DNA from: a virus
Length of the DNA stretch: 39,994 bases
Virus record (IMG/VR): IMGVR_UViG_3300028549_000379
Span: 1 to 39,994 of that record
Strand: one strand, 5' to 3'
The translations under genes were made by a program, and so were the position numbers. This document shows positions 10,660 through 39,994 of this stretch, piece by piece (within the stretch, counting starts at the first letter, position 1; each line of letters begins with the position of its first letter). The notes under the pieces were generated by a model, which saw only the letters and a list, made by a program, of their open reading frames with translations, did no database searches and was not told where the DNA came from.

Positions 10660-12324
10660 ATGTTAAATACAGATGATAACAAATTTTTGTTAGACGGGAA
10701 CGGGATTAAAACCGAATTCGAGTTCGATTTTAAGATCTTCAAAGATACGGATTTAAAAGTATCTAAAATAAATAAAACGACTTTCGCAGAAACGCCGGTA
10801 GTCCTAAATGTTGACTATACTGTACAGATTAGCCGTATTCAAAGCGGCGGTAAAGTAATTTTTATTACCCCGCCTACAGATAACGAAAAGGCCTTCGGTT
10901 ACAGAGATATAGCAATTTTACAACCCGAAGAAATCCCAACAGAGGGGAGTTTTCCGGAAGTTAGCCTAGAAAACGCTCTTGATAGATCGTGCATGATTTC
11001 GCAACAACTTCAAGAACAAGTAAACAGAACTTTAAAAACTCCGTCTTTTTCGAATATAACAAACATAAATATTGAACAACCAATAGACGGTCGCGCTGTA
11101 ACATGGGAGATTGAGGGGGTAACGGCAACATTAAAAAATTCGAATGTTAACCCGGATGACGTAGTAGTCGAGGCTACCGAACAAGTAGCATTAGCGGCGG
11201 CGCAAGTATCGCTAGCAACGGAACAGGCGACTAACGCCGCTTTAAATGCGGAAGCGGCGGCGGCGATATTGGGGCAAGTCCCGACCGCTCAAAACGTTTC
11301 GTCTTTAGTTCGTATCGCCGATGGTTCCCTGGCTAACTTCCCGCTTGATGACGTCAAGGCCCATAGACGCCCTTATTTAGCGGTTACGGGGAAAAGACAA
11401 TTAACAATATACGCGGGAACTTTTATAAAACTTGTAACGGATATCGATACAAGATACTTGGCTCAATTAACTGACGAAATTATCGACGTAGAAAGTATAT
11501 TAGACACAGGCGCTACGCTTACTAATGGGAAAGATTACTACCTCTATTTAGTTTCTAATGGAACGTCCGGAGTAAAGAAAATTCTTTCTCTAAATGCTAC
11601 GTACCCTCTAGGATATACCGCTAATAATTCCCGAAAAATAGGCGGATTCCATACCCTTTGCGTAGGAGTTACAGCGGCTAACGCGCCTAGAGCGGGACAC
11701 CCCGCGATTGGTTACTTGGCCGGGGACATAATTCCCAATACAATATGGGCGTTGAACTTTAAAGCGGCAAGTGGTAACGAGGGAAAAGCGTATGTAGCGC
11801 CTCGTAGAGAATGGCAATACATTTATAATGTGAGCGGTACCGGTGCTAATACGAAGTCGGCTTACGGCGCGACTAGAAGTCATACGAGAAACTATCACAA
11901 ATTTGTTGAAGATCTATTTAGTGTAAATGATATGATGATAACCCAAGACGGTTTTTCCTGTGGTATGGAAGGCTCGAACTATTTAACGGCGGTCGCCGGT
12001 GCGGTTCAACCTAACCCGGATACTACTGGCGGGCGTTTAGATACAGCCGGTAAACGTATGATCTCTAACTATTTCTTAGAAGAAGGTTGCGGGCTACAAG
12101 TGCAATTCGCCGAGGGGCTTATAGGCGGTGGCGGCAGTGCGTGGAGCGCCCCGGATACCGACGGAAAAGGTCAACAGTATGGGACTTCTTATGTTGTGGT
12201 CTTGGGCGGTTATTGGGGTGATGGTGGGTACGCCGGTCCTCGTTTTCGTGATTTCGCCGATTCCGCGTCTACGGCCAGCGCTGGCCTCGGCGGTCGCGGG
12301 CGGAGCTGTCATATAGAGTATTAA
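10660..12324 (+). CDS. Tail fibre / receptor-binding protein; DGR target gene with C-terminal variable region
   Basis: aaggagg SD. 554 aa, in the T7 gp17 position with matching size. The C-terminus (...VVVLGGYWGDGGYAGPRFRDFADSASTASAGLGGRGRSCHIEY) is encoded by the VR that matches the downstream TR. The GGxW...R...GxRG pattern is typical of C-type-lectin-fold DGR variable proteins. Confidence 0.85.
   Translation: MLNTDDNKFLLDGNGIKTEFEFDFKIFKDTDLKVSKINKTTFAETPVVLNVDYTVQISRIQSGGKVIFITPPTDNEKAFGYRDIAILQPEEIPTEGSFPEVSLENALDRSCMISQQLQEQVNRTLKTPSFSNITNINIEQPIDGRAVTWEIEGVTATLKNSNVNPDDVVVEATEQVALAAAQVSLATEQATNAALNAEAAAAILGQVPTAQNVSSLVRIADGSLANFPLDDVKAHRRPYLAVTGKRQLTIYAGTFIKLVTDIDTRYLAQLTDEIIDVESILDTGATLTNGKDYYLYLVSNGTSGVKKILSLNATYPLGYTANNSRKIGGFHTLCVGVTAANAPRAGHPAIGYLAGDIIPNTIWALNFKAASGNEGKAYVAPRREWQYIYNVSGTGANTKSAYGATRSHTRNYHKFVEDLFSVNDMMITQDGFSCGMEGSNYLTAVAGAVQPNPDTTGGRLDTAGKRMISNYFLEEGCGLQVQFAEGLIGGGGSAWSAPDTDGKGQQYGTSYVVVLGGYWGDGGYAGPRFRDFADSASTASAGLGGRGRSCHIEY
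12189..12310 (+). repeat. DGR variable region (VR)
   Basis: Ungapped 122-nt alignment to 12356-12477. All ~20 differences fall where the TR has A. The VR ends 14 nt before the target stop codon. Confidence 0.9.
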
Positions 12325-12355
12325 GGAGAAAACAGGTAATGAGTTTCTTCGTCCG

Positions 12356-12477
12356 TTATGTTGTGATCTTGGGCGGTAATTGGAGTAATGGTGGATACAC
12401 CGGTCCTCGTTATCGTAATTTCAACAATTCCGCGTCAACGGCCAACGCTAACATCGGCAGTCGCGGGCAGAGATGTA
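12356..12477 (+). repeat. DGR template repeat (TR)
   Basis: This is the A-rich copy of the VR, with many AAT/AAC codons in the VR reading frame. It lies 45 nt after the VR and 142 nt before the reverse transcriptase start. Confidence 0.9.
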
Positions 12478-12619
12478 TAGGGGTTCGCCCTTTGACAGCT
12501 GAACTCATTACCTTGTCGCTAGCCGGCAGAACACTCAACACGCGTCTAAGACTTGTCCTAGAAGCTACAATCAGCCCTTTGTTAGTAGGGTATACATCGA
12601 AAATAAGGGGCTTTTTATT

Positions 12620-13942
12620 ATGAAACGATACGGGAAACTTTGGGAAAAAATAATAGATCCGGAGAATATAAAACTAGCTTATCAAAAGGCTAGAAAATGT
12701 AGAAGTAAATTCGAAAGTGTAAAAAAGTTTGAAGCTAACGAGGCGGAAAATTTAGAATTAATCCGAAAGCTTTTAGTTGAAAAAACTTTCAAAACTTCTA
12801 AGTACACGACTAAAACGATTTACGAACCAAAGAAAAGAACAATTTATATACTCCCGTTCTCTCCGGATCGAATTGTACAACACTCTCTAACAAATATAAT
12901 AACGCCCATCATAGACAGTTTATTCATCGAAAATAGCTTTGCTTGTAGGAAGGGCAAAGGTCAACACTCTGGGAGTACAAAAACGAAAGAATTTGTTAAG
13001 CATAATAAATACTGTTTTAAAGGTGATATATCAAAGTTCTACCCGTCAATAAATCACGATATTTTAATGGGTTTAATCGAACATAAAATTAAGTGCAAAG
13101 ACACGCTATGGCTACTTAGAGACATTGTGTATTCGTTCCCTGGCGAAACTAATACGCCTATCGGAAATTTAACCTCTCAATGGTTCGGCAATTTGTACAT
13201 GCACGAATTAGATATGTACGTTAAACACGAATTGAAGATTAAGAATTATATTAGATATTGCGATGATTTTTGTTTATTTCACGATGACAAAAAAGTATTA
13301 AAAGACGCGGCCGAAAAAATAGAAGAATTTTTAAAAACTAAATTACAATTAAAATTAAGTCAAAGCGATCTTTTTCCAACGTCCCGAGGCGTGGACTTTT
13401 TAGGCTATAGGCACTTCCCGGAGTACACTTTATTAAGAAAAAGTACAGCCAAAAGAGTTAAACGCCGCCTAAAGGTCCTACCGCACCGGCTAGAGACAGA
13501 ACAGATAAATATAGTAACTTATACCTCGACGCTCGCTAGCGCCTTTGGGTGGCTCAACTGGGCGGACACTTATAACCTTATGAAGAAAATAAACTTAATT
13601 AGTATGTTAGACGACGCAAAAGTCAAATTAAAGGAGGACATTATCATGCGCGATTTTCCAAAACACCTAAACACAAAACAGGACTATTTAAATCTATTGA
13701 AAGATTTTCCGGAGCAAACTAAAAAGGCTCTACAAAATCTTTTAGAAAGTAGGTTCGAATGGTTCGTAGTTAGAAAACTGGACGAGGGCGAAGTTATCGC
13801 CGATTCAGAAACTTTAAAAATTGTTGAGAGTAAAGAAGGCGAAGAAACTAAAAAATATCTTTATGAATATAAAGAAGATTCTAACGCTAACTTATTTAGA
13901 TTAGGATTTACAATCGATGAAGTAAAAACATTAGTAGCGTAA
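12620..13942 (+). CDS. DGR reverse transcriptase (core about 342 aa plus an in-frame extension of about 98 aa)
   Basis: Carries the YCDD catalytic box (IRYCDDFCLFHDD) and the DGR-RT signature IGNLTSQWFGNLYM ([ILV]GxxxSQ). It sits immediately downstream of the TR. Confidence 0.92.
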   Translation: MKRYGKLWEKIIDPENIKLAYQKARKCRSKFESVKKFEANEAENLELIRKLLVEKTFKTSKYTTKTIYEPKKRTIYILPFSPDRIVQHSLTNIITPIIDSLFIENSFACRKGKGQHSGSTKTKEFVKHNKYCFKGDISKFYPSINHDILMGLIEHKIKCKDTLWLLRDIVYSFPGETNTPIGNLTSQWFGNLYMHELDMYVKHELKIKNYIRYCDDFCLFHDDKKVLKDAAEKIEEFLKTKLQLKLSQSDLFPTSRGVDFLGYRHFPEYTLLRKSTAKRVKRRLKVLPHRLETEQINIVTYTSTLASAFGWLNWADTYNLMKKINLISMLDDAKVKLKEDIIMRDFPKHLNTKQDYLNLLKDFPEQTKKALQNLLESRFEWFVVRKLDEGEVIADSETLKIVESKEGEETKKYLYEYKEDSNANLFRLGFTIDEVKTLVA

Positions 13943-14906: not shown

Positions 14907-15440
14907 ATGGTAGCAAATTACGCAGTAAAAACACTTTCTGAACAGCCTGTTCATGACGTATCATGTCTTGAAAAGATTGATTTATCTTCATGTCATGTAT
15001 CATGTCATGATTCATGTAATGAAGGTATAACTACCTTATCATGTCATGATCATGTCATGTATGACGTGAAGAAAAAACTTCCTATGTCGGATTACAATTA
15101 TTTAGTTAATCAGTTAGAAGCGTGGAGAGTTTTCGCACCTAGAGCCGTTATTAAAAGATATGGGGCTTTAAATGCTTGGGAGGCTATGAACAGGACAAAA
15201 GATTTTAAGGCTAGAATTCCCGGCGCTTACTTTACAAAAGTTATTAGAAGCTTAACCGGAATGAACGGCAAGTTACAAGCGGCTAAAAAAGCGGAACAAG
15301 AATCCGTCTCTTTAATCGACGCATTTAAGGATTATAAAAACGCTATGAAGTATCTAAATTCAATAACCGGGAAAGATTTGGAAGATCCTCAAACCGCTAT
15401 GAATGTTAATAACTTAAAAATTAAATTTAATTTTGCCTAA
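14907..15440 (+). CDS. Hypothetical protein with N-terminal Ser-Cys-His repeats
   Basis: ORF track 14844..15440. The in-frame ATG at 14907 is preceded by aagaggag. The N-terminal SSCHVSCHDSC...LSCHDH segment is encoded by tandem TCATGTCATG repeats. Confidence 0.6.
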   Translation: MVANYAVKTLSEQPVHDVSCLEKIDLSSCHVSCHDSCNEGITTLSCHDHVMYDVKKKLPMSDYNYLVNQLEAWRVFAPRAVIKRYGALNAWEAMNRTKDFKARIPGAYFTKVIRSLTGMNGKLQAAKKAEQESVSLIDAFKDYKNAMKYLNSITGKDLEDPQTAMNVNNLKIKFNFA

Positions 15441-15535
15441 ATAAATTGTAAAAATATTACCCCTTATGGGTTCTGAAATAAGGTCCGCTATTGTATAATG
15501 ATAATGTCGAATACAAAAACGGATCTTATTTTATT

Positions 15536-15775
15536 ATGTTTGATTTTAAAAATTTAAAGCAATATGCGCTTATTATACTGGTGGTTTTCGTCTTTTTATT
15601 ACAGCAAAAACTAATAGTAACGCCGGTGGAACTCGAGCAAAAGCATAGGGAAATTCTCGAGGACGTCGACTCTAAATACGCGACAATCAATCAAGTCAAA
15701 GACGTAAAAACCGACGTCCAAGATATGAAAGATAAAATAGATAAGATCTACGATAAGGTTATTGGAATGAGATAG
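15536..15775 (+). CDS. Holin-like small membrane protein (one TM plus charged helical tail)
   Basis: ORF track 15491..15775 begins at a TTG; the first in-frame ATG is at 15536. TM segment YALIILVVFVFLL. It lies immediately upstream of the endolysin gene. Confidence 0.5.
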   Translation: MFDFKNLKQYALIILVVFVFLLQQKLIVTPVELEQKHREILEDVDSKYATINQVKDVKTDVQDMKDKIDKIYDKVIGMR

Positions 15776-17583: not shown

Positions 17584-19596
17584 TTATTTTTTATACCTAA
17601 TTCCGCGCCAACCTTCGGCGATAACCGGATAATCTTTCGCCCAGGATGGGACAGCCGATAAAGTGTCTTCAAACTCTTTAACGCTTCCGAATCCGATCGG
17701 GACTTCCGCGACAACTTCGTCATGTACCGTCATACAAATTGGGTAGCCTTTTGCCTCTAGTTGAAGCATACCGTTACACATTAAATCCCTGGCCGTCGCT
17801 TGTACAATGTTTTCCGTTATCATACCGCCGTAGGTGTGTTGTCTTTCCCATCTTTTAGTTAGAGAGTTTACGCCCATGAAGGTTAAAGACTCTTTAACGC
17901 TTCCCCATTTTGTGGTTACTTCTTTTATCAAAGGTTCCGCGTAAGCTAGGCAACGTCCGGAAGGTAATTTACAATATAGAAAGAATCCTTGTACCTTCCA
18001 CGCTATCGGGCCTTCCTGTACTAATCTTCCCGGATTTCTAGTCGCCAGTATCGCCGCGCGTTCCTGGGCGTACCAAAATTTTACAACTTCCGGATATGTA
18101 GTTCTATAAGTCTGTACAACGCTTTGAGCGGTATCGTACGAAATATCTAACCCCACCATATTTTTAACGTGGCCGATAAATCTTTCCGGTCCCATTTGGA
18201 AGCCGCAACCTAAAACGCCCATTTTTCCTAATTGGCGTTCTACTTTGTTTTTCTTTTTATCTAGCGGACGTTTGTAGATTTCTTCGGCTAACCGGAGATA
18301 GATATCGGCGCCGCTTTTAAATTCGTCTATCCCTCTTTGTGCGCCGGCAAGTACCATTAATACGCGCGCCTCAATTTGAGCGAAATCCGCCGCGATTAAA
18401 TCGTGTCCGGGTTTTGCTATTATAAATCCGCGAAGTGCGGCGCTAATCGCGTCTATAACATTCGGGTACAACATTTCGAAGGCTTCGAGGTCGTGGAGTT
18501 TTAACGTTTGGATGATAATATCCGCGTTATACTCGTCGCTTCCTTTTGGGAAGTTTTGAACCTGGATTCCACTACCCGCCCAACGGCCGGTAGAAGCCCC
18601 GTGATAAACCAAAATATCCCTTACCCGTTCGTCATCGCCTAATCTTTGTTTAATTTTATCTAACTTAGCGGTGGAAGATTTTCCGGCTTGTTGTCTTATT
18701 TCTAGTATTCTTCTAACATTTTTATTTTCACACGTTTTTAAATAATCTTTGATAATGGCCGCATTTAAGCTAGGAAGTGCGCCGGGTTCTACGTGATTGT
18801 GTAGATATTCCCCCAACTTTTTAACTTCTGTAGCCGCCATAACGGCGCCGGACGTTAGGTCCTGTAATTCTAAATTCAATCTAGTTTTATATTCGCTAGT
18901 GAATCTAATCGCCGTATCCAAGACCTCGGTATCAATCTGTACGCCGCGTAAATTAATTTTTTGATCTAATTCCCATATAGCTTTTTCGGTTTTGCCTAAA
19001 TCCGGTATCGCTTTGTCTATTTCGCGTTCTACTATAACGTCCTGGTCGCAATATGAATATAACGTTTCAAATTTTGCCGGGTCGTTGACCCATCTTGTGG
19101 GGTCTTTTTTACTGGGATTTTTCGGCCGCGATAATTGAAGCATTGTCTTTTTTCCGGATTCGTCTTTTTCTTCCGAAAGATGTAAGGCTTTGGCGCATTT
19201 CGCCAAAGATCTAGGGAGTGCATGACTGGCCGCTTTTGCAGCTGTACAATCCCAACGTTTTAAATCCCACATGTTCGGAAATCCTAGACGTTTGTGTAGG
19301 ACATTATTCCACATGCAAAATTCAAACATAGAGTTGTGCGCTTTAAAAATATTCGTTTTATCAAGCGCTAACGCTTTAGCCTGTTCGATGTTCGGAGTTG
19401 TAAACCCGCCGTCGTCTATGAAATCATAGAAATAATTATCGAAATCGTCTTTTGTAATTGTCAAAACTTTTTCGTCATCAATCGTAAAACATAGGCATAA
19501 AACGGAGGTAGAAGGGTCCGTAGAATACTTCCACGGACCTACTTCCGTTACATCTATGAGGCTTCGAGTTTCAAAGTCAAGATGTATGTTAGCCAT
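17584..19596 (-). CDS. Family A DNA polymerase with 3'-5' exonuclease domain
   Basis: Exo motifs LDFETRS, HNSMFEF and YCDQDV. Pol motifs DFAQIEARVL (A), RQLGKMGVLGCGFQMG (B) and VHDEVV (C). Confidence 0.9.
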   Translation of the reverse strand: MANIHLDFETRSLIDVTEVGPWKYSTDPSTSVLCLCFTIDDEKVLTITKDDFDNYFYDFIDDGGFTTPNIEQAKALALDKTNIFKAHNSMFEFCMWNNVLHKRLGFPNMWDLKRWDCTAAKAASHALPRSLAKCAKALHLSEEKDESGKKTMLQLSRPKNPSKKDPTRWVNDPAKFETLYSYCDQDVIVEREIDKAIPDLGKTEKAIWELDQKINLRGVQIDTEVLDTAIRFTSEYKTRLNLELQDLTSGAVMAATEVKKLGEYLHNHVEPGALPSLNAAIIKDYLKTCENKNVRRILEIRQQAGKSSTAKLDKIKQRLGDDERVRDILVYHGASTGRWAGSGIQVQNFPKGSDEYNADIIIQTLKLHDLEAFEMLYPNVIDAISAALRGFIIAKPGHDLIAADFAQIEARVLMVLAGAQRGIDEFKSGADIYLRLAEEIYKRPLDKKKNKVERQLGKMGVLGCGFQMGPERFIGHVKNMVGLDISYDTAQSVVQTYRTTYPEVVKFWYAQERAAILATRNPGRLVQEGPIAWKVQGFFLYCKLPSGRCLAYAEPLIKEVTTKWGSVKESLTFMGVNSLTKRWERQHTYGGMITENIVQATARDLMCNGMLQLEAKGYPICMTVHDEVVAEVPIGFGSVKEFEDTLSAVPSWAKDYPVIAEGWRGIRYKK

Positions 19597-21945: not shown

Positions 21946-23265
21946 GATGTTTTCTCCTTTTCTTTTGTTTTGTGTGTTCGACAATAAACGAGTAATGACT
22001 TTACTCTTACTAATTACGCTTTTTAACATATTATCTTCGAGGGTATCCGGAACGACTAAATAGTGAGCCATAACGGGCTTTGTTTGTCCCATTCTGCGGA
22101 CTCTATCCCTTGCTTGTTCTAAGTTCCCCGGTACCCAGTCAATTTCTGCAAATACTACATGGTTACAAACTTTTTGAAGTCCATCAACGCCGAAGCCCGC
22201 CGCGGTTATTTGGCCGACAAATAAACGGCTATTATAGTCTTTTACAAATAGATCTACTTCAAATTGTTTCATTTTAGCGGTGATTCCACCTAAAACACAT
22301 CTTACGGTATGCCCCGCGAAACGTTTACGAATAGCGTTTATAACGGTTCTGTGATACGCGAAAATTACTATTTTTTGTTCAGTTTGTAATAAATTTTCTA
22401 TATACTCGTAAACTTGATTTAATTTAGCTTCGCCTAATTGGCGTCTTATTGTGGCTTGTATCCCTAATTCACTATCGGGATTGAAGTCGTTAGCCTCTTC
22501 GTGTAGGCGCTCTTCTTCCGCTAGAACGTCCGCGATTTCGTCCGTTGTTTCGAGTAGTACGGTTTTTTCTATAAGCGGAGGAAGTTCCGTTAAAACTTCT
22601 TCTTTAGTTCGTCTAAGCATGAAATCGGAAAGTTTTTCGTTAAGTTCCTCAATATTTGAAGATCCTTTATCTTCCAAAACTCCGTAACTGTTCATGAACG
22701 CGCCGCAATATCTAATAGCGTAAGCCTCGTAGCTTGTATAAGGTTCGATAACCTGGGGCGCCATAACTTTTAACATAACGTAAAAATCTTTAGGTCTGTT
22801 TCTTACCGGCGTCCCTGTTAGCGCGTAAGTATGTTTAGCGTTTCTGATAAGCCCGTCGTTACTTAAAACCTTTTTAGTGCGTTTAGCGTCCATATTTGAT
22901 AGGTTATGCGCTTCGTCCAGGATTAAATAATCATATTGAAGACTCATTAATTGTTTGAATATTTCCGGATAAATTAATAAATCATAGTTGACGATTATAA
23001 TTTCCGCGTCCGATTCTAAAATATCTTTTACTTTAAATAGGATTTGATATTTATAATCTTTTTTGACCCACTCGCTTAACTCTCTAAACCAATTTATTTT
23101 TAAAGAGGATAGCGTCAAAACTAAGACGCGTTTCGGTCTTTTACGATCAATTAGCCCCGCGACTTGAATAGTTTTACCCAGGCCCATATCATCGGCCAAG
23201 AGCGCCGTTTTTCTCGCCGCCATAAAATCTATGCCGACATTCTGAAAATCTCTATATTGTTTCAT
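21514..23265 (-). CDS. SNF2-family helicase (about 440 aa) fused in frame to a 143-aa acidic C-terminal region
   Basis: Motif I DDMGLGKT, motif II DEAH (LILDEAHNL), motif III TGTPVRN, motif VI QARDRVRRMGQ. Confidence 0.85.
   Translation of the reverse strand: MKQYRDFQNVGIDFMAARKTALLADDMGLGKTIQVAGLIDRKRPKRVLVLTLSSLKINWFRELSEWVKKDYKYQILFKVKDILESDAEIIIVNYDLLIYPEIFKQLMSLQYDYLILDEAHNLSNMDAKRTKKVLSNDGLIRNAKHTYALTGTPVRNRPKDFYVMLKVMAPQVIEPYTSYEAYAIRYCGAFMNSYGVLEDKGSSNIEELNEKLSDFMLRRTKEEVLTELPPLIEKTVLLETTDEIADVLAEEERLHEEANDFNPDSELGIQATIRRQLGEAKLNQVYEYIENLLQTEQKIVIFAYHRTVINAIRKRFAGHTVRCVLGGITAKMKQFEVDLFVKDYNSRLFVGQITAAGFGVDGLQKVCNHVVFAEIDWVPGNLEQARDRVRRMGQTKPVMAHYLVVPDTLEDNMLKSVISKSKVITRLLSNTQNKRKGENIMTIESSLDRIAVALETIIELSQQDSQGAETPKKTSTRKSPKKAVEEVTPEPTPVVEAEIVEATPAIEEDDMLGDLDLTPEVEAVALTIDDVKAAFSHFIGSCGDISQGKAKAVEILKKFGYAKIPDIQEKDYAAIINEIKGGK
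21968..21982 (-). promoter_or_regulatory. 13-mer variant GTCGAACACACAAAA (CA insertion), located inside coding sequence
   Basis: Sense on the - strand, 22 nt upstream of the internal ATG at 21945. Confidence 0.5.
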
Positions 23266-25388
23266 TATAGTAGTCCTAACTCTTCCAGGTTAACAGCCAT
23301 TCTCTTATAGCCGTTTGTAGTCTTCCCTTGCTTTTTATGATGGAATTTACCTTTTTCCCATCCTAATTCTTTAACCATAATTTGGGCGACGCGGGTTAAT
23401 TCCCTTTGTGTCGTTCTGCTTATGGATATTCCGATACATTCTTCTAAAATTTCGCGTCCTGTTACCACGGATCTAGGCGAACCAATTTCCGGATCGGTTC
23501 TACATAACCAATCGGCTATAGGCTCAATCCACGGGTCGCGCTGTCTTCTTTTTTCAGTTTCATAATTCGCCATCTTTATCACATCATCCCCTAGGTAAAG
23601 TCTTTCACCTTTAAAGTACCTCGATACGGCTTCCGCCCATAATTGGTCCCGATTTTCTTTTAATCCGGAGAAGTCTACTTTTTTGCAAACTACCGGCCAA
23701 AAACGGCGATTCCCCGTAGTATCTTTTAAATATCCCCCGCCTTCTTCCGGGTTGATTGTTCCAATAAAAACACTTTGTCTCGGATAGTCTTCCGCGTTTC
23801 GGCGGTATGCTAATCTTACGCGATCAGTTGTTTTCGATAAGAAGGATTTTAATTTATCAGTATCAACCTTACGGCTACATACCATTTCGGATACTTCGAT
23901 TATCCAATTTCCCCGCATAGCGTCTATTGTATCTTTGTCGCTGTCCGTAATTCCTATATCGCCGTACCATTTACCGCCTAAAATAGCGATTAACGTACTT
24001 TTTCCGATACCCTGTTCGCCCTCTAATACAAGCATTGAATCAAACTTGACGCCTGGATTAAATACACGCGCTACCGCTCCTGTCAATACTTTACGAGATA
24101 CCGCACGGGTGTATAAGTTATCATCCACGCCCGCGAAATCGTGTAGCCACGTATCTAGTCGCTTTTTACCGTCCCATTCAAGAGATTTTAAATAATCTCT
24201 AACAGGATGGTAGCGGAATTTTTCCGCCGCAATTTGTGCCGCTTCCTGGCATAGTTGGGTAGGAACGTTAAAACATCTTACGCGACTTAACCAATATCTA
24301 AAATTGATCGCGTCGGAATCCGTCCAAGGTCCTAATTTTTTTCCGTTATGCCACGGTGCCGGATTTACAAACATAAGGTCGTTTGTAAACTCGTTATATT
24401 TGAGGATTCCCAAGAATGGGTATTCTTTACAAAGAAGGTAATTAACCGTATTTCTGATAGTCGGTTTTATAGTATTCGTACGATTATCTACGTCCCATTT
24501 TAAATCGTCTTCACTTTCTCCGATTGTCTCTTCTTCAAGCGATAATACTTTCTCGAAATCGCTTTCAGCGGTATTTTTACCGATAATATCTATGTTATAA
24601 GTGTACGCGTTATCAACCTTCTTTTTCAATTCGTTAATATCCCAAACAGGTACACAGCGAGGATTCCAAAACTCTACTAATAATTCAAAAGTTTTTTGAG
24701 CCGATAAAGCGAAATCGCGCCCGCGACATGCAGTTTTGAAAGTTAAGACGTCGCCGCCTTCGCCTTCAATCGCCGGCGGGCAACCTTGCAAAAATTTCAC
24801 ATAACGTAAAACACTTTGTTCGCTATCAGTAAAAGCAAGTTGTGTTTTGCTTAGATCTAGTTCCGCTCTTTTGATTTTTTCTAATAAAGCTACGGGCGCT
24901 TGTTCCGGCTTAAAAGGTTTTTTTAGTAAAGAATAAAGTTTCCCAGTATCCGGGTGAATACTTCCCGCCCCTACTATTTGTTGACCTTTTGTTTTAAATT
25001 CGATTCCTGGATATTCTTTTTCTAAACTTCCGCGCACATCAAAGTTACCCGGCTTTTTAAAATAAATATGAAGACCATCGCCACCGGTACGAACCGTAAA
25101 CGTGCTAAAGTCTGCGCCAATGTCTTTAATGAATTGTGCTAGCACGTTTACGCCCACCGGAAATCTACGCGGATCTACATCAACTATCAAGTCAGTATCG
25201 CGTAAGACTATCCCATAGTTTCCTTTGATTTCATCAGCCGTCATAAACGGATCATATTCAGTTTTTACCCAGTCTTTGACTGCCGGGATTTTGCCGTTTA
25301 AAGGCGTTAGGGTATAACCCGCTTCCACGTAGCCTAAGACTAATTCGCCCTTACTCAAGTCCGGACAAGTTGTCTTCTTCTTTTCCAC
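23265..25388 (-). CDS. Bifunctional primase-polymerase (AEP) / VirE-D5-type P-loop helicase
   Basis: N-terminal prim-pol pattern (KIPAVKDW, LIVDVDPR, GGDGLHIYF). C-terminal Walker A LEGEQGIGKST with D5/VirE-like context. 707 aa. Confidence 0.85.
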   Translation of the reverse strand: MEKKKTTCPDLSKGELVLGYVEAGYTLTPLNGKIPAVKDWVKTEYDPFMTADEIKGNYGIVLRDTDLIVDVDPRRFPVGVNVLAQFIKDIGADFSTFTVRTGGDGLHIYFKKPGNFDVRGSLEKEYPGIEFKTKGQQIVGAGSIHPDTGKLYSLLKKPFKPEQAPVALLEKIKRAELDLSKTQLAFTDSEQSVLRYVKFLQGCPPAIEGEGGDVLTFKTACRGRDFALSAQKTFELLVEFWNPRCVPVWDINELKKKVDNAYTYNIDIIGKNTAESDFEKVLSLEEETIGESEDDLKWDVDNRTNTIKPTIRNTVNYLLCKEYPFLGILKYNEFTNDLMFVNPAPWHNGKKLGPWTDSDAINFRYWLSRVRCFNVPTQLCQEAAQIAAEKFRYHPVRDYLKSLEWDGKKRLDTWLHDFAGVDDNLYTRAVSRKVLTGAVARVFNPGVKFDSMLVLEGEQGIGKSTLIAILGGKWYGDIGITDSDKDTIDAMRGNWIIEVSEMVCSRKVDTDKLKSFLSKTTDRVRLAYRRNAEDYPRQSVFIGTINPEEGGGYLKDTTGNRRFWPVVCKKVDFSGLKENRDQLWAEAVSRYFKGERLYLGDDVIKMANYETEKRRQRDPWIEPIADWLCRTDPEIGSPRSVVTGREILEECIGISISRTTQRELTRVAQIMVKELGWEKGKFHHKKQGKTTNGYKRMAVNLEELGLL

Positions 25389-29879: not shown

Positions 29880-30056
29880 TCACTTTCTTTTTTTGTAATA
29901 CTTAATATTTAATGACTTTGTACGTTTCTTATAGTTTTCTATGCAATATAGGAAAAGGTCGGACAATTCAATATTTTTTATCCCTTCCGGCGTTACAACT
30001 TGAAGCGAGTAATCGCTTACAAGGTTTAAAATATCCTTTTGCTTGATTTGTTCCAT
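29880..30056 (-). CDS. Unlisted 58-aa ORF, first gene of the leftward early operon (tentative)
   Basis: Hand translation: MEQIKQKDILNLVSDYSLQVVTPEGIKNIELSDLFLYCIENYKKRTKSLNIKYYKKRK. The SD is weak. It lies downstream of the - strand promoter at 30101-30129. Confidence 0.35.
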   Translation of the reverse strand: MEQIKQKDILNLVSDYSLQVVTPEGIKNIELSDLFLYCIENYKKRTKSLNIKYYKKRK

Positions 30057-30100
30057 TTCTTAACTGCTTTCAACCTAAACTATAAAACGTTTCTGTTATA

Positions 30101-30129
30101 AGTTTAAACGAAAACGTTTTGAAAGTCAA
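30101..30129 (-). promoter_or_regulatory. Sigma70-type leftward early promoter
   Basis: On the - strand: TTGACT (30129-30124), 17-nt spacer, TAAACT (30106-30101). The spacer contains the AAAACGTTTT palindrome. Confidence 0.5.
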
Positions 30130-30195
30130 CCCCTCTAATTAAACTATTTTATTTTGTTACATAACGTATTAGTTTCGTAATTATATTTTAGTGTA

Positions 30196-30224
30196 TTGAC
30201 ATATAATAAAATATGTGTTATCCT
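30196..30224 (+). promoter_or_regulatory. Sigma70-type rightward promoter for the XRE regulator
   Basis: TTGACA (30196-30201), 17-nt spacer, TATCCT (30219-30224), with a TGT immediately upstream of the -10. Confidence 0.4.
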
Positions 30225-30256
30225 GTTAGAGTTACTAAAACCCCCAGGAGGAAACA

Positions 30257-30501
30257 TGGCTAAAATTACTAAAGAAATGACGGAATCAATTAAAAATGAT
30301 TTAAAGTCGTACATGGTTAAAAGAGGCTATAACATACAATCGTTAGCCGATTTATTAACTAAAAAGTATGGAAGACCCGAGAGCGCCCAAAACCTCTCAA
30401 ACAAACTAAATCGAGGCGCAATAAAATACGCCGAAGTGTTGGAGATTGCGGAGGTTCTGGGATATAATATCTCTTGGGTTTCTAAAAAAGAAAATGATTA
30501 A
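30257..30501 (+). CDS. XRE/Cro-CI-family HTH transcriptional regulator (81 aa)
   Basis: ORF track 30196..30501. The ATG at 30257 follows a ccaggagg SD. YNIQSLADLL...SNKLNRGAIKYAEVLEIAEVLGY matches the XRE HTH pattern. Confidence 0.7.
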
Positions 30502-30525
30502 TAATTATTAAGTTGTCAAAGTGCT

Positions 30526-30560
30526 AAAAATGCCCGTCTCTCTTAAAAGACGGGCATTTT
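30526..30560. terminator. Bidirectional intrinsic terminator
   Basis: aaaaaTGCCCGTCT-ctcttaaa-AGACGGGCAtttt: 9-bp stem with an A-tract on one side and a T-tract on the other. Confidence 0.8.
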
Positions 30561-30672
30561 GCTACACTAGACAGTTAGGCTATTTCGTTAATTACACTTG
30601 ATTTAAGTTTATTTGCGTTTATAATGTAATTAATACACGAAAGTGGTTTCAGCGTTTGCGCGCTCCAACTGT

Positions 30673-30685
30673 TTTTGTGTTCGAC
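30673..30685 (-). promoter_or_regulatory. Conserved 13-mer GTCGAACACAAAA (exact), orphan copy with no ORF downstream
   Basis: Sense on the - strand. TAAAAT lies 2 nt upstream. No SD/ATG occurs before the terminator at 30526-30560. Confidence 0.55.
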
Positions 30686-30745
30686 AAATTTTAAGCGTTA
30701 GACTATGGCAGAGCCGTATTTTAGCGCTTTTTCTTTTAAGATTTA

Positions 30746-30758
30746 TTTTGTGTTCGAC
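30746..30758 (-). promoter_or_regulatory. Conserved 13-mer GTCGAACACAAAA (exact), orphan copy
   Basis: Sense on the - strand. TAATAT lies immediately upstream. It is 34 nt from the long hairpin at 30792-30850. Confidence 0.55.
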
Positions 30759-30791
30759 ATATTACTAATTGAACTTCCATTATTAAACGAC

Positions 30792-30850
30792 AAAGCGCCC
30801 AATTATTACTTACACCGATTAAAACGGATTTGTAATTATTGGGCGCTTTT
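30792..30850. terminator. Long 18-bp hairpin (one mismatch) with T-tract; insulator or terminator between divergent 13-mers
   Basis: AAAGCGCCCAATTATTAC-22 nt-GTAATTATTGGGCGCTTT, then tattatcttttt. Confidence 0.55.
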
Positions 30851-30937
30851 ATTATCTTTTTGACTCGGATTAGTACCGATTATAGTCTATAGATTACGTC
30901 AAATAACAGCTATTCAATTTGTTATCTCTAAACGATA

Positions 30938-30949
30938 GCGAACACAAAA
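30938..30949 (+). promoter_or_regulatory. 13-mer variant GCGAACACAAAA pointing into the iteron region
   Basis: CGAACACAAAATA is identical to the copies at 17567 and 30746. A TTGACT-N15-TATAGT element lies at 30860-30886 upstream. Confidence 0.45.
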
Positions 30950-31028
30950 TAACTTGTCAAGCGTTTATGAACTTATATTAACTTAAATTAATAATATTAA
31001 ACGAATATAAACGCAATTTGGTACAGTC

Positions 31029-31386
31029 GTAAGGTTTCCGATGTTCTTACCTCCTTACATCGCATTTTAGCGGGAGCGAGGTAAGGCTAAAAACATATAA
31101 ACTTATGTTAAGAGAGGTAAGACTAAAAAGGGTTAAAAAGCCTTACATCTTACATCTGTTTTATAGTAGAGAGGTAAGAAAGATGTAAGACCCCGAAAAC
31201 TAACTATAATCGTATTATATAATATAATCTTACATATCTTACATCTATATAGTATTATTAATATATTATATATAACACTATTTTAAAGCTATTGAGTTTT
31301 ACACGCTTAAAACTTTTACTCTTTTTTGAGGTAAGACAGGTAAGACGTTTTCGACTTAATTATATTTTAGCTTTTTAGATGTAAGA
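31029..31386. repeat. Iteron array: 14 copies of GTAAG[AG]/[CT]CTTAC in both orientations, interleaved with AT-rich tracts
   Basis: Forward copies at 31029, 31081, 31117, 31174, 31185, 31331, 31340 and 31381. Reverse copies at 31045, 31053, 31141, 31148, 31228 and 31237. Extended forms are GAGGTAAGAC and AGATGTAAGA. There is one more reverse copy at 31629. Confidence 0.8.
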
Positions 31387-31818
31387 TTTAATGTTTTTAT
31401 GTTCACATCGGCTCACCGCTTTTTTATTTTCAAGAGCGCCAAAATCCTATTAAAAATCTTTGCCTAATTTTGCTGTGATTTTGTGCAAAGGTCTTTTGAT
31501 ATATTATGTATATCTTTATTTGTGTTATGATTTGATGAAATTGTATGATTTCAAACGTTTAATATTTTCTCGGGCGCTTTAAGCCTGTTAAAATATATCT
31601 TTCTACCTTTTGTTAGTGTCTTTAGCCTTCTTACATAATTATTGTTATAGGTATATTACGCGTCGATATACTAATATCACTACAATGTAGTCATAGCTTG
31701 ACGCGTTGTTATGCCTGTTAATAAAGCTATTGAGCCTATAAAGCGCGCTAATGCTTATTAGTAGGCGTTATAACTATGCAAGAGTGCGCGACACTTGGAA
31801 CTATTAATATGCCATACT

Positions 31819-31895
31819 CGGAGGGGTCCCCCTCTTTTTTGACCCCATAGCGACCCGGGACACCCGGCCGCCCGCCGTCGGGAGGGACCCCTCTA
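31819..31895. other. GC-rich structured island in AT-rich DNA
   Basis: GAGGGGTCCCCCTC+T6 (31821-31840), hairpins CCGGG-aca-CCCGG and CCCG-ccgt-CGGG, then GAGGGACCCCTC (31882-31893), which can pair with the first element. Confidence 0.6.
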
Positions 31896-32061
31896 AAGAT
31901 TCAATATGTCAATATTCAAGAGGTTTAACCGCGATGAAATTCCAAAAATTAAAAATATAAAAAATCTGAAAAACCTTTATTAACGCTAATGAACGCCATT
32001 TAATTATAGTTAATAAATTATTGAGATTAAAATCACAATGGTTTATACTGGTTATGAAATT

Positions 32062-32080
32062 GTCGAACATAGAAACAAAA
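32062..32080 (+). promoter_or_regulatory. Degenerate 13-mer (GTCGAACATAGAAACAAAA) upstream of the packaging/head operon
   Basis: It shares GTCGAACA and CAAAA, separated by an insertion. It lies 86 nt upstream of CDS 32166. Confidence 0.3.
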
Positions 32081-32165
32081 TACGTATTTAGCTTTATTCG
32101 CGGGGTCCCCGTGTAATAAAGCTGTACGCGTATTAACGAAAAAGAATTAACGAAGGAGATTTATC

Positions 32166-32765
32166 ATGACTGAAAAAGGCGTAAAGTACGATTTTGGCGG
32201 GCAGTATTACACGGGCCAAAAACACGGTGAAGAGATTAAAAACTATGAAATTTCTATAGTTTTTCCGGAAGAAACTCCGAAGGCTTTATCACTGTTTAAA
32301 ACCGGTTTGCTTCAACCGCACAATGCTATCTATAAGCTGATGATTGCTAAATACACAGATTTTAGAAAAGCTAGAACGCTCGTTATTACGAACGTTACTA
32401 ACTTGGATAAAAAGGTCGCAGACGATAACGTTAGCAATGTAGCGACTATGAACGTAAAACAGTTGACCGCTTATGTCAAAAAGAACAAAATCGCTCTTGA
32501 TGTAAAAATCTATGAAGGCGATATAACTAGACTTCGCGAAGCAATTATAAAAGCTGAAAAAGACCCGGAAGCATTTAAAGAAATTTATAAAGCTGACCTA
32601 GAGTCTTATAATTTCAATCTTTCTCTAAACACTTTGAACGACGTTCCGGAAGAGGGCGAAGCGGACAAAACTTCTAATGAAGACGTAGACACTACTATTC
32701 TTACCGCTGATGACTTACTCGGCGATTTAGATGGTAGCGACGAGGGCGACGGTGGAGACGAGTAA
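32166..32765 (+). CDS. Hypothetical protein with acidic C-terminal DDLLGDL tail
   Basis: 199-aa ORF with an aaggag SD. First gene of the late operon. The C-terminus is ADDLLGDLDGSDEGDGGDE. Confidence 0.6.
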   Translation: MTEKGVKYDFGGQYYTGQKHGEEIKNYEISIVFPEETPKALSLFKTGLLQPHNAIYKLMIAKYTDFRKARTLVITNVTNLDKKVADDNVSNVATMNVKQLTAYVKKNKIALDVKIYEGDITRLREAIIKAEKDPEAFKEIYKADLESYNFNLSLNTLNDVPEEGEADKTSNEDVDTTILTADDLLGDLDGSDEGDGGDE

Positions 32766-32799
32766 TTCATTCTTACCACCCGCGAAGCCTAATAAGGCA

Positions 32800-33147
32800 A
32801 TGATAGAATGGGTTAATGGCGTTCCGGAACCTTGTTACGGCTACATTAACCCTTCGTCTATTAAGAAACTCGCAGTAGCGGCCGCGTCTATTCCCTATTC
32901 CGGCGAATGGGACGCAGACCTAGAAATGAATATAATCGAACCGCGTTTCGAGGGTTTAACAAATGTAGAAGTTATGTGGATTAAAGTCGCAGAAAAAGCC
33001 GCTCGCGGGGACCTGGACGCCACAAATATGATGTTAGATAGAATCCTCGGAAAGCCGAAACAAAGTGTAGAATCTACTTCTATGACTATGAGTTATCAAG
33101 AATTTTTAAATATGGTGGCAAAACAGGAAAACGGCGGCAATGGATAA
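32800..33147 (+). CDS. Putative terminase small subunit
   Basis: ORF track 32731..33147. The alternative ATG at 32800 avoids a 35-nt overlap. It lies directly upstream of, and overlapping, the large terminase. LDRILGKPKQSVE resembles small-terminase C-terminal patterns. Confidence 0.45.
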   Translation: MIEWVNGVPEPCYGYINPSSIKKLAVAAASIPYSGEWDADLEMNIIEPRFEGLTNVEVMWIKVAEKAARGDLDATNMMLDRILGKPKQSVESTSMTMSYQEFLNMVAKQENGGNG

Positions 33148-34708
33148 TAGTAACAGAATACACGATAGACTAACGAATGACTTTATATTTTTTGCTAGAC
33201 ATTGCTTGAAGGTAAAAAATAAATCGGGCCATCTAGTACCATTCGAACTAAATCGCGCGCAAAAGTATGTACACCAGCAAGTAGAAGAGCAGAAAAGAAA
33301 AACGGGACGTATTAGGGCTTTAATCCCTAAAGCGCGTCAAGGTGGATTGAGTACCTATGTATCCGGACGTTTTTATCGTAATAACAATAGAAAATCTAAT
33401 AAGTCTACTTTTATTCTTTCTCACCAATCAACGACTACCGGCGCACTTTTTAATATGGTGGACCGCTATCACGAGAATTGCCCGGATCCGGTAAAACCAA
33501 AAGCGGTAGTAAGCAACAAACGACAATTAAAGTTCGAGAACGGCTCGGAATACACAGTAGGGACGGCGGGAAGTGGCGACGTAGGTCGCGGCTTTACAAC
33601 TCAATACTTGCATTTATCCGAAGCCGCTTTTTTTGAAAATACCGACGATATTCAAACGGGGATCTTACAATCTGTAGCGGATGAAGACGATACAGAAATT
33701 TTCGTAGAATCTACGGGAAACGGGGTAGGTAATTGGTTTTATCAAGCGTGTATGGACGCGTTAAACGGTAAAGGCGATTACATTGTTATTTTTATTCCCT
33801 GGTTCTTTATGGACGAATACCGCGCGGCACTTCCGCACGATTTTTTAATAACTCCGGAGGAACAATCACTAAAAGAACTTTACGAATTAGACGACCAACA
33901 AATTTACTGGCGTCGTAAAAAAATAGAAACTTTGGGGAGCGATTGGAAGTTTAAACAGGAATACCCTTCTAACGTTATGGAATGTTTCCAAACGTCGGGC
34001 GACCCTTTAGTCAATGCAGAAATGGCTATGAGAGCGCGTAAGGCTAAAATAGTTCCTAACCCACAAACTCCTTTAATTATGGGCGTAGACCCTAAAGGAA
34101 GCGGGGGAGATTCCGCCGATATAGTATTTAGACGCGGGAATGTTGTCCCGGGTTATAAACACTATGACGAGGAAATGGATCCTATGAGATTTGTAGGAAT
34201 ATGCGCGACTTTGATTGATAGGATGGGCGTCGATAAGATGTTTATAGATAACGGCTACGGGTATCAAATAGCTAGCCGCTTATGGGAATTAGGATATAGG
34301 GATATTGTTACTACGGTCGATTTCAGCGAAACGCCGATAGACAATGACAGATTTTTAAATAAAAGGGCGGAAATGGCTATTACCGCGCGTGATTGGCTTG
34401 AAGAGGGACCCACCTCTATACCCGATGACGATTTGTTTTACACCGATATAATGTGTGTACCTAGAGAGATTGAAACCTCTAATAGTAAATTTAAAATAAT
34501 TTCGAAAGATATTATACGACAAAAATTCGGACGTTCTCCGGGATTGTCGGACGCGTGGTGGTTAACATTTGCTTATCCTGTCCGCAGTAAAGCTAATATA
34601 AATAACCAACGATTTAAAAAAATTGGTAGCGGTGAAGACGGTAAACGAATGAGTCCGTTAAAAACGCTTAATCGTATTAGAACTAAGAAGAATAATAGGG
34701 GGTATTAA
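33140..34708 (+). CDS. terL: Terminase large subunit
   Basis: 522 aa. ATPase region (LIPKARQGGLSTYVSGRF, LHLSEAAF) and nuclease region (GVDPKGSGGDSADIV), with the FELNRAQ pattern near the N-terminus. It lies upstream of the portal. Confidence 0.8.
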   Translation: MDNSNRIHDRLTNDFIFFARHCLKVKNKSGHLVPFELNRAQKYVHQQVEEQKRKTGRIRALIPKARQGGLSTYVSGRFYRNNNRKSNKSTFILSHQSTTTGALFNMVDRYHENCPDPVKPKAVVSNKRQLKFENGSEYTVGTAGSGDVGRGFTTQYLHLSEAAFFENTDDIQTGILQSVADEDDTEIFVESTGNGVGNWFYQACMDALNGKGDYIVIFIPWFFMDEYRAALPHDFLITPEEQSLKELYELDDQQIYWRRKKIETLGSDWKFKQEYPSNVMECFQTSGDPLVNAEMAMRARKAKIVPNPQTPLIMGVDPKGSGGDSADIVFRRGNVVPGYKHYDEEMDPMRFVGICATLIDRMGVDKMFIDNGYGYQIASRLWELGYRDIVTTVDFSETPIDNDRFLNKRAEMAITARDWLEEGPTSIPDDDLFYTDIMCVPREIETSNSKFKIISKDIIRQKFGRSPGLSDAWWLTFAYPVRSKANINNQRFKKIGSGEDGKRMSPLKTLNRIRTKKNNRGY

Positions 34709-39271: not shown

Positions 39272-39769
39272 ATGGCAGTAATTGACATATACGCAAATGC
39301 AGACTTACAAAGTCAAAAGCTAGCTACCGCCGCAAACCTTACAGGAAATAAGGTCGTTGTGGCAGCGGTTACTTTCGAAATTGGCGCGGCAGATTCTAAC
39401 ACATCTGTTTATAGGGTTTTCCCGGATCTTAATCCGAATCTAATCCCTGTAGACATTAAAGTTATGAACGACGCTATGGGCGGAGCGGCGAGTAGCTATG
39501 ACCTCGGCATTTATGCCGGCGGAAAAGGCGCCGTTATTAACAAAACTCTTTTCTCAGCGGCTACAAGTTTTCAAGCGGCTAGAATTAAATCAGCGCCGTT
39601 AGACGGGATGGGTGCATTAGACATTGCTAATCTCGGGAAAAAACTTCATGAACTTGCGGGCCATACCGTCGCAACTAAAAAAGAAAGTTACGACGTTTGT
39701 CTTACAGCTAATACGGTAACTGCCGCGGCGGGTACGGTAACGGTTGTAGGGACGTTCATACAAGGTTAG
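39272..39769 (+). CDS. Putative capsid decoration / minor head protein
   Basis: 165-aa ORF with an agggag SD. It lies immediately after the capsid gene and before the terminator. Confidence 0.4.
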   Translation: MAVIDIYANADLQSQKLATAANLTGNKVVVAAVTFEIGAADSNTSVYRVFPDLNPNLIPVDIKVMNDAMGGAASSYDLGIYAGGKGAVINKTLFSAATSFQAARIKSAPLDGMGALDIANLGKKLHELAGHTVATKKESYDVCLTANTVTAAAGTVTVVGTFIQG

Positions 39770-39994
39770 AAGAGACTTAATTATTAATTGTAGTAAAGCG
39801 CGCCGACTGTGCGCGCTTTATTTTTAAAAAGGGGTTATTGATGTTATCTAAATCAGAAGTTAATATATGCAATAAAGCGCTAGATTATCTAGGACAGGTG
39901 GCGGACGTAGGAAATATCGAAACCCCTACAACAGATAACGAAAAAGTCTTTTCGCGCCATTACCATGACGCGCTAGATTTTGTCCTTAGAAAAT
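39740..39994. repeat. Window-terminal direct duplication, copy 2 (includes a duplicate terminator at 39795-39825 and a partial duplicate of CDS 102..746 from 39841)
   Basis: Identical by eye to 1-255. Confidence 0.9.

Follow-up and report, generated by a model that had tools for sequence, protein, structure and literature searches.

The closest described counterparts of the element reported here, a dense array of short GTAAGR repeats (iterons) around an AT-rich core in a 39,994-nt viral contig (IMG/VR record IMGVR_UViG_3300028549_000379, analysed as a whole contig and hereafter called the window), are the replication origins of the staphylococcal pathogenicity islands (SaPIs). The Rep proteins of these islands are helicases that load themselves and read iterons of five or six nucleotides with a C-terminal winged helix. 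Each origin comprises 6 to 12 such iterons; its middle part is AT-rich and has two or more iterons to either side, which face in opposite directions (PMC9371898). One Rep hexamer has been proposed to load itself on each side, and the iteron sequences differ between SaPI elements with specificity for the cognate Rep (PMC9371898). By our analysis, the layout of the array in the window fits this description point by point. The array is proposed to be the replication origin of the phage, of the SaPI Pri-Rep/P4 alpha type, with a probability of roughly 0.7. From sequence comparison we infer that the primase-helicase encoded in the window binds the repeats and that replication starts at the array.

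The SaPI origins used for comparison (SaPI1, with the Rep1 structure 7PDS, and SaPI5, with the PriRep5 structure 7OLA) have iterons of 5-6 bp, and the window has 13 or 14 hexamers. As in the SaPI origins, a central AT-rich region is bordered by iterons on both sides, and the two or more opposed iterons per side are represented by a (- -) pair on the left and a (+ +) pair on the right, an arrangement that is conserved in relatives. The window also encodes a homologue, by sequence and by structure, of the self-loading hexameric helicase of the VapE/D5 type with its C-terminal winged helix. A primase is fused to Rep in this protein as it is in SaPI5, the primase part of the window protein being a Prim-Pol domain. 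The differences concern position, number and setting. The SaPI origin lies immediately downstream of rep, whereas the proposed origin of the window lies about 5.6 kb away in the intergenic region between early and late genes; the 6 to 12 iterons of SaPIs compare with 14 in the window, unevenly placed, with 11 left of the core and 3 right of it; and SaPIs are staphylococcal satellites, whereas the window is a 39.7-kb tailed phage or prophage with Melainabacteria as its apparent hosts.

A second counterpart is the satellite phage P4, whose alpha protein combines a primase, a helicase of the superfamily 3 (SF3) type and a C-terminal winged-helix origin-binding domain in one polypeptide. Its origin consists of short (8 bp) repeats in both orientations beside an AT-rich stretch, away from the alpha gene, and P4 requires a second repeat cluster (crr) in cis. 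Set side by side by description, the organisation of the P4 system and of the window is alike, but the repeat sequences are unrelated and no second GTAAGR cluster was found in the window. The SV40 large T and papillomavirus E1 proteins assemble as SF3 double hexamers where 5-6 bp sites stand in inverted pairs next to DNA that is AT-rich or melts easily; here the likeness to the window is one of mechanism only, as these systems are eukaryotic, with unrelated origin-binding domains and a much smaller number of sites (four pentamers). In the origins of lambda (ori/O) and of the plasmids P1, F, R6K and pPS10 (RepA type), initiator repeats stand beside an AT-rich unwinding element, as in the window. 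Classical iterons, however, are direct repeats of 17-22 bp bound by dimeric or monomeric winged-helix initiators that recruit the host helicase via a loader, whereas the window has bidirectional repeats of 6-9 bp and a candidate initiator that is a helicase in its own right. It was concluded that the array is not a classical plasmid or lambda iteron origin because of these short bidirectional repeats, because no RepA- or O-type protein was found among the open reading frames (ORFs) of the window that were scanned, and because a search for DnaA boxes within 30300-32200, with one mismatch allowed, gave none.

The hexamer GTAAGR occurs 60 times on both strands of the window, with 14 copies in 31029-31386 and one at 31629. 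The number expected in 358 bp is 0.41 from the rate outside the region or 0.34 from the local base composition, and the enrichment claimed in an earlier note on this DNA (14 copies against 0.2-0.4) was right. The two extended subtypes of the repeat described there are real and merge into a single 9-mer, GAKGTAAGR, which in common orientation was present in 11 of the 15 GTAAGR copies and was matched 13 times in the window (11 within the array) against 0.76 expected. The positions of the pairs and their spacings of 7-11 bp were as that note had given them (Table 1), and its block-wise switches of orientation were confirmed, with the order + -- + + -- ++ -- ++ + along the array. The copy at 31029 (GTCGTAAGG) was deemed a doubtful member since it lacks the 9-mer context and has no counterpart in aligned relatives.

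Relatives were fetched via the large terminase subunit (TerL) and the primase-helicase from viral, metagenome and genome collections; their loci are designated by L numbers and primase-helicase homologues by P numbers, and the contigs for P0023, P0024, P0027 and P0012 contribute no array as they end before it. More than 15 contigs of related phages or prophages (TerL identity 44-78%) have an array at the corresponding position, which is 1.6-2.2 kb upstream of the TerL gene. Arrays of GTAAGR with 7-14 copies were observed in L001, L013, L014, L015, L033/L045, L034/L042, L035, L036/L044, L041, L078 and L083-L086, and L041 keeps the array even though identity to the window is as low as about 44% in both its TerL and its primase-helicase. 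In an alignment of seven arrays, individual pairs were positionally conserved and the intervening sequence was not, the best conserved block being the left-flank pair, TTCTTACATATCTTACAT, which reads TTGTTACATCTGTTACAT in L012. The constant layout consists of a (- -) pair, about 85 bp of AT-rich DNA and a (+ +) pair. Measured from start to start, the two pairs are 94 bp apart in the window, L015, L042, L045 and L035, 95 bp apart in L012 and 84-114 bp apart at other loci.

The sequence of the repeat falls by lineage into six classes: GTAAGR, GTAACR, GTAACAC, TATAAGA, GAGGGGAG and GTAGGA. In L012 (TerL 67% identical) GTAAC stands at the aligned positions where the window has GTAAG; L077 likewise has GTAAC, L068 has GTAACAC, L072 has TATAAGA, L018, L016 and L081 have GAGGGGAG, and L049 has GTAGGA. 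Each array holds 5-14 copies of its own motif (7-14 except in L049) and 0-1 of the other classes, which makes the motifs mutually exclusive. From this coordinated change at every copy it was deduced that a protein recognises the repeats in a sequence-specific way that varies between lineages, and composition or chance was ruled out as the explanation.

The interleaved AT-rich tracts described in the earlier note are real. Duplex stability was computed by a nearest-neighbour energy scan over all 39,994 bp of the window, and the least stable segments of 60 bp (31214-31274), 100 bp (31201-31301) and 200 bp (31200-31400) all fell within 31200-31400 (z = 3.7-4.1, and 4.0 for the 100-bp segment), with the next candidates far behind. 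A/T pairs make up 81% of 31243-31330. Of 16 relatives examined, 12 likewise had the stability minimum of the locus, taken over 100 bp, inside the array, and in the alignment of seven arrays the composition and length of the core were conserved and its sequence was not. Among the 60-bp and 200-bp segments of the window, those that rank second in instability lie at 15398-15601, about 350 nt downstream of a group of repeats at 14950-15070.

The statement in the earlier note that no iteron-binding Rep was obvious proved wrong, as the SaPI Rep initiators have a clear homologue in the primase-helicase of 707 amino acids encoded at 23265-25388. This protein is a fused Pri-Rep with a Prim-Pol domain at residues 19-165, a VapE-like ATPase of the SF3 type at residues 400-614 and a C-terminal winged helix, and it was matched by the Pfam families PF09250 (Prim-Pol), PF05272 (VapE-like ATPase, E = 9e-76) and PF19263. 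Its closest solved relative is SaPI1 Rep1 (7PDS; phmmer E = 8.7e-52). The AlphaFold2 model (predicted local distance difference test score, pLDDT, 88) has a winged helix composed of helix, helix and beta-hairpin at residues 644-695, and in a Foldseek comparison of this model with 7PDS the whole Rep1 chain was aligned (target-normalised template modelling score 0.75, E = 1e-30).

Further data came from the way in which this winged helix varies with the motif. When 60 homologues were ranked by divergence of the last 75 residues relative to the rest of the protein, the winged-helix domain was found to diverge faster in three lineages with other motifs (the array being seen, or for one lineage inferred): P0021 (40% identity against 66% for the rest), P0019 (57% against 68%) and P0012/13/15 (about 60% against 72%). 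The prediction that flagged lineages carry arrays other than GTAAG held for P0021 and P0019, the two readable cases (L068, L072), while P0012/13 are probably linked to the GAGGGGAG array, as judged by the protein of L081, which is 91% identical to P0012 over residues 1-646. The lineages without a marked C-terminal excess (within about 7 points), namely P0003, P0004/5, P0008, P0011 and P0020, carry GTAAGR, and P0025, with a different wing, has a GTAAC array. A natural experiment was offered by L068 and L072, which are 91-94% identical in DNA over 14 kb, yet have different arrays. Besides the array, the small genes next to it, another small gene and the final 1.2 kb of the primase-helicase gene differ between the two; in the encoded protein, identity is 96.6% for the N-terminal 320 residues and 63% for the C-terminal 400. 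A column scan of eight GTAAG-type primase-helicases against five others returned only T26 and T690 as discriminating among 192 invariant columns; T690 lies in the wing and is L, V, S, R or A in the five others.

The array is proposed to be an origin because of the enrichment, the conserved place and layout, the concerted motif switches, the stability minimum, the homology of the candidate initiator, the co-divergence of its C terminus and the failure of other candidates. The general interpretation of the earlier note, an iteron origin or protein-loading site with an unwinding tract, is thereby the best-supported one after the comparative analysis, while its points on Rep, on packaging and partition and on the copy at 31629 proved wrong or gained no support. 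In the mechanism that we propose, each hexamer, within its 9-mer GAKGTAAGR, would be a site for the C-terminal winged helix of the primase-helicase. Rep would gather on the opposed pairs that flank the 82-bp core (31228-31245 on the minus strand and 31328-31345 on the plus strand, 94 bp apart), and hexamers would assemble on each side, melt the AT-rich core and load themselves as SF3-type helicases. The fused Prim-Pol domain would then lay primers for extension by the phage PolA (17584-19596), and replication would proceed in both directions from the point at which the leftward early and the rightward late modules diverge. The outer iterons (31045-31190 and 31378-31386) may raise the local concentration of Rep or add cooperativity.

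Several points weigh against this assignment. The comparison of L068 with L072 is not a clean one because the small helix-turn-helix (HTH) genes adjacent to the array and another small gene also differ, and mosaicism is common in the region. T690 is only a hint, since the TerL background was similar (2 of 164 columns). The primase-helicase comparison was made without L012 and covers L018/L081 (GAGGGGAG) at residues 1-646 only, via L081. The array lies upstream of the start of the primase-helicase gene, with at least ten genes in the approximately 5.6 kb between them. The cumulative GC skew, which the earlier note had suggested computing, does have its minimum at the array, but this minimum is not independent evidence for an origin because gene orientation also switches there. 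The protein encoded by the first gene of the late operon (32166-32765) may, judged from sequence, be the binder of the array, as 4 of its 40 invariant columns discriminate motif classes. Finally, the ends of several contigs at or near the AT-rich core could point to a DNA terminus.

The contig ends bear on packaging. Genome-length contigs from different studies (L009, L072 and L077; 41.05-41.25 kb) end at the borders of the AT-rich core, contig L040 (41.5 kb) ends within its array, and the shorter contigs L008, L002, L046 and L047 end within a few hundred bases of the array. These ends would be accounted for if the array were a pac site like that of phage P1, where DNA is recognised and cut for packaging; its reader would be either the protein resembling the small terminase subunit (TerS-like, 32731-33147) or the first late-operon protein. 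In P1 pac, the terminase binds hexamers with Dam sites, which lie to either side of a central cut region that measures about 90 bp. The window is similar in having hexamers on both sides of a centre of about 90 bp, 0.8-2 kb upstream of the packaging genes. The TerS-like protein of the window, however, does not co-vary with the motif. Although L068 (GTAACAC) and L018 (GAGGGGAG) have unrelated motifs, they share 90% identity in this protein, and its 49 invariant columns include none that separates the classes; the protein was rejected as the binder for these reasons. The first late-operon protein does evolve fast (54% identity between L068 and L018 against 87% for TerL), but L041 retains GTAAGA despite a homologue of this protein that has diverged beyond detection by tblastn; for the protein itself, PHROGs and Pfam gave no family and nothing marks DNA binding. 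A better match for a conserved terminase is offered by a GC-rich island at 31815-31895, which stands in AT-rich DNA between the array and the terminase genes and is conserved in sequence in all relatives whatever their iteron class. This island contains two GAGGGGnCCCCTC-type palindromes, the first of which was caught by a terminator scan, and GGGGTCCCC lies in addition at 32102-32110; no supported structure was obtained from a consensus RNA fold of 31815-31895, and the island is a candidate terminase recognition site or terminator.

As to the contig ends themselves, breaks in DNA that is 80-90% AT are a common artefact, and assembly failure is the simpler reading. The assembly of the window runs through the AT-rich core and is a circular contig broken elsewhere. 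The packaging role that the earlier note had allowed for gained no support from these data, and a pac site was judged very unlikely. A related idea, that the origin core is also a physical DNA end or processing site at which initiation is coupled with terminus generation or the start of packaging, was considered decidedly unlikely; if it held, the lineage-specific pairs of iteron and Rep would form an incompatibility barrier between Melainabacteria prophages resident in the same cell.

The foremost alternative to an origin, and itself unlikely, is that the array forms an operator field for the small regulator encoded at 30256-30501, which would act in a lysis-lysogeny or early/late switch and control divergent promoters leftward from 30960 and rightward from 31630. 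The array does lie between two conserved divergent promoter-like elements. The leftward one, which abuts the left border of the array, reads TTGACA-N17-TATAAT in L045, has N16-TATAAT in L001 and TATCAT in L015; a TTGTCAA previously taken for a rightward promoter firing into the array was dropped, as the promoter scan fits the leftward TTGACA-N17-TATCGT better. On the right, the GTAAGR copy at 31629, which the earlier note had counted as an additional repeat, is present as a hexamer and is not a member of the family. It is part of a separate conserved element, TTACATAAT-N5-ATTATC...TCGAAACGA, followed by a small hairpin, which reads TTTACA, GTTACA or CTTACA in L001, L002, L008, L009, L012, L015, L018 and L068 whatever the motif of the array, and which is probably a rightward promoter with an operator-like palindrome.

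The small DNA-binding gene lies 500-850 bp to the left of the array and points at it, the relatives are temperate (chromosomal prophages; a serine recombinase in L072), and the small genes adjacent to the array differ between L068 and L072 together with the array. An operator would fit these observations. The adjacent gene is nonetheless a replaceable cassette drawn from three unrelated families that do not track the motif: family A, with a DUF6471 HTH (window, L015, L035, L044, L045, L078 and L072); family B, AbrB-like with an acidic DDEIPF tail resembling that of single-stranded DNA-binding protein (SSB) in L001 and L018 and without the tail in L077; and family C, with a CI-like HTH (L012 and L068). 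Arrays of GTAAGR are accompanied by family A at seven loci, by family B in L001 and by no such gene in L013 and L014, and GTAAC arrays occur with family B or C. Family B spans three motifs, and family C was seen with GTAAC arrays only, in two cases only, which would favour an operator. Despite its TATAAGA array, L072 has a DUF6471 protein with 64-71% identity to its counterparts in most GTAAGR phages and 50% to the one in the window; the protein of the window shares 41-50% with those of other GTAAGR phages, less than that of L072 does. The DUF6471 protein was rejected as the main binder of the array on this lack of tracking, and an operator would leave the conserved 94-bp AT-rich core of minimal stability without a role.

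The most improbable of the alternatives weighed casts the array as a partition centromere or as a set of binding sites for another phage or host factor that has no part in replication, for example a transcription factor or nucleoid protein. Short repeats in both orientations are also found in type Ib and type II plasmid centromeres. Among the ORFs of the window that were scanned, however, no ParA-, ParM- or ParB-like gene was seen, and since the relatives integrate into the chromosome a partition system would not be needed; the partition role raised in the earlier note is thus unsupported. A host protein as binder would leave six motif classes unexplained among phages that apparently share one host group, and neither a centromere nor another binder would explain the AT-rich core and the SaPI-like geometry.

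If the array is an origin of the SaPI/P4 type, a concrete candidate origin and initiator are now available for an uncultured phage family of about 40 kb that carries a diversity-generating retroelement (DGR). To our knowledge, no replication biology is known for these Melainabacteria-associated phages. The result would extend the design of self-loading primase-helicase and hexamer iterons, as in SaPIs and P4, from satellites to complete tailed phages, and it would be unsurprising to replication specialists because the kind of system is already known. The lineages would also form a natural series in which a protein scaffold that is nearly constant carries six or more iteron specificities. Such a series would be useful for understanding how a winged helix reads 6 bp, with T690 in the wing as the first candidate, and could supply orthogonal pairs of origin and initiator.

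The genome is deduced to assemble as a 39,739-bp circle (circular or circularly permuted) because nt 1-255, within the structural gene module, are identical to nt 39740-39994, an assembly overlap. About 1.7 kb of non-coding DNA (30502-32165), in which the array lies, separates two gene modules. To the left is a leftward early and replication module with the primase-helicase, an SNF2 helicase, a PD-(D/E)XK exonuclease, an Enc34-type SSB and PolA; to the right is a rightward packaging and structural module with the protein of unknown function at 32166-32765, the TerS-like protein, TerL (33140-34708) and the portal protein. The coordinates of the features are collected in Table 1.

Table 1. Coordinates of the iteron array, the candidate initiator and further features of the window
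Feature	Position	Strand	Remarks
Whole iteron array	31029-31386		14 GTAAGR hexamers, 13 credible
Iteron pair GAGGTAAGA, GATGTAAGG	31045-31061	-	hexamers 31045/31053, 8 bp apart; aligned first (- -) pair in seven phages
Single iteron GAGGTAAGG, then CTAAAAA	31078-31086	+	
Single iteron GAGGTAAGA, then CTAAAAA	31114-31122	+	
Iteron pair GATGTAAGG, GATGTAAGA	31141-31156	-	hexamers 31141/31148, 7 bp apart
Iteron pair GAGGTAAGA, GATGTAAGA	31171-31190	+	hexamers 31174/31185, 11 bp apart; conserved in alignment; L012 version GGTAAC...GGTAAC
Left-flank iteron pair TATGTAAGA, GATGTAAGA	31228-31245	-	hexamers 31228/31237, 9 bp apart; adjoins AT-rich core
AT-rich core, candidate DNA unwinding element	31246-31327	none	82 bp
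Right-flank iteron pair GAGGTAAGA, CAGGTAAGA	31328-31345	+	hexamers 31331/31340, 9 bp apart; orientation opposite to left-flank pair
Distal single iteron GATGTAAGA	31378-31386	+	conserved in L015, L045 and L009
Primase-helicase, fused Pri-Rep, candidate initiator	23265-25388	-	707 amino acids; Pfam, phmmer, AlphaFold2, Foldseek
C-terminal winged-helix coding region (residues ~640-707)	23268-23471	-	predicted recognition helix 661-674; beta-hairpin wing 678-695 including T690
Sigma-70-type promoter TTGACA-N17-TATCGT	30932-30960	-	conserved; abuts left border of array; promoter scan
Promoter-like element CTTACA-N16-TATATT with ATAAT-N5-ATTAT palindrome	31630-31657	+	contains the 31629 copy
DUF6471 HTH, small DNA-binding gene	30256-30501	+	left of array, pointing at array
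Phage PolA	17584-19596		left (early/replication) module
DGR target gene, Mtd-like	10660-12324		PF21916
DGR accessory ORF	12339-12623		94 amino acids
DGR reverse transcriptase	12620-13942		PF00078
DGR variable repeat	12189-12309		121 nt, at 3' end of target gene
DGR template repeat	12356-12476		167 nt downstream
TGTCGAAYACAAAA, coding-strand sites	15505(+), 17567(-), 20182(-), 21970(-), 25626(-), 28515(-), 30673(-), 30746(-), 32061(+), 38270(+)		

A DNA similarity search with 30300-32200 against 50,697 phage records gave no match, and the nearest TerL proteins among isolates, those of Pseudoalteromonas phage H6/1 and Vibrio phage 1.182.O, are about 40% identical. Close relatives (TerL 64-67% identical) were found inside genomes labelled Vampirovibrio, Melainabacteria or Gastranaerophilales (L082, L083, L085 and L086), including a 219-kb contig (L083, CAJTLG010000002.1) and a 2.0-Mb chromosome (L085, CP091731.1), and three of these genome-embedded relatives (L083, L085 and L086) carry GTAAGR arrays. 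It follows from these integrated relatives that the phage family is probably temperate on gut and rumen Melainabacteria. Other metagenome-assembled genome labels (Elusimicrobia, Bacteroidales) were attached to phage-sized contigs and may be binning errors. A reading of a TGTCGAA motif as a Spo0A box, which would imply a spore-forming Firmicute host, was dropped because the integrated relatives lie in Melainabacteria genomes. In L072, the segment 15983-19090, downstream of the PolA module, holds a gene for a large serine recombinase (Resolvase, Recombinase, Zn_ribbon_recom) followed by one for an EF-G/TetM-like GTPase, which suggests integration functions and perhaps a ribosomal-protection cargo gene.

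A hairpin at 30792-30849 has an 18-bp stem that is 94% complementary and T-runs on both strands. In relatives the stem sequence differs and the loop motif CGGAyTnAAACCGATT is kept. Standing between the HTH gene and the leftward promoter, the hairpin probably acts as a bidirectional terminator or else is a small structured RNA. An Rfam scan of 30000-32400 returned nothing credible, and a search of the window for tRNA genes found none.

The repeats at 14950-15070, with CATGTCATG and TCATG as their units, form a cluster of four exact and about eight loose copies in the ORF 14907-15440, for which no Pfam or PHROG family was found. The cluster had been considered as an alternative origin, and the repetition is explained instead at the codon level because it lies inside the ORF and encodes Ser-Cys-His repeats; these are conserved in L034, L036, L039 and L073. 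A 14-nt motif, TGTCGAAYACAAAA, was matched 12 times in the window with up to 2 mismatches against 0.99 expected and is conserved in relatives. Where checked, it stands about 20-50 nt upstream of a start codon, and the two matches besides the coding-strand sites of Table 1 are at 5255 and 30936, both on the plus strand. The motif could be a phage-specific promoter, a transcription-start signal or a 5' untranslated region signal. It is similar to a Spo0A box, an identity that is unlikely given the host group. The window also contains a complete DGR at 10660-13942, in which all 19 of the 19 mismatches between the variable and template repeats fall at template adenines.

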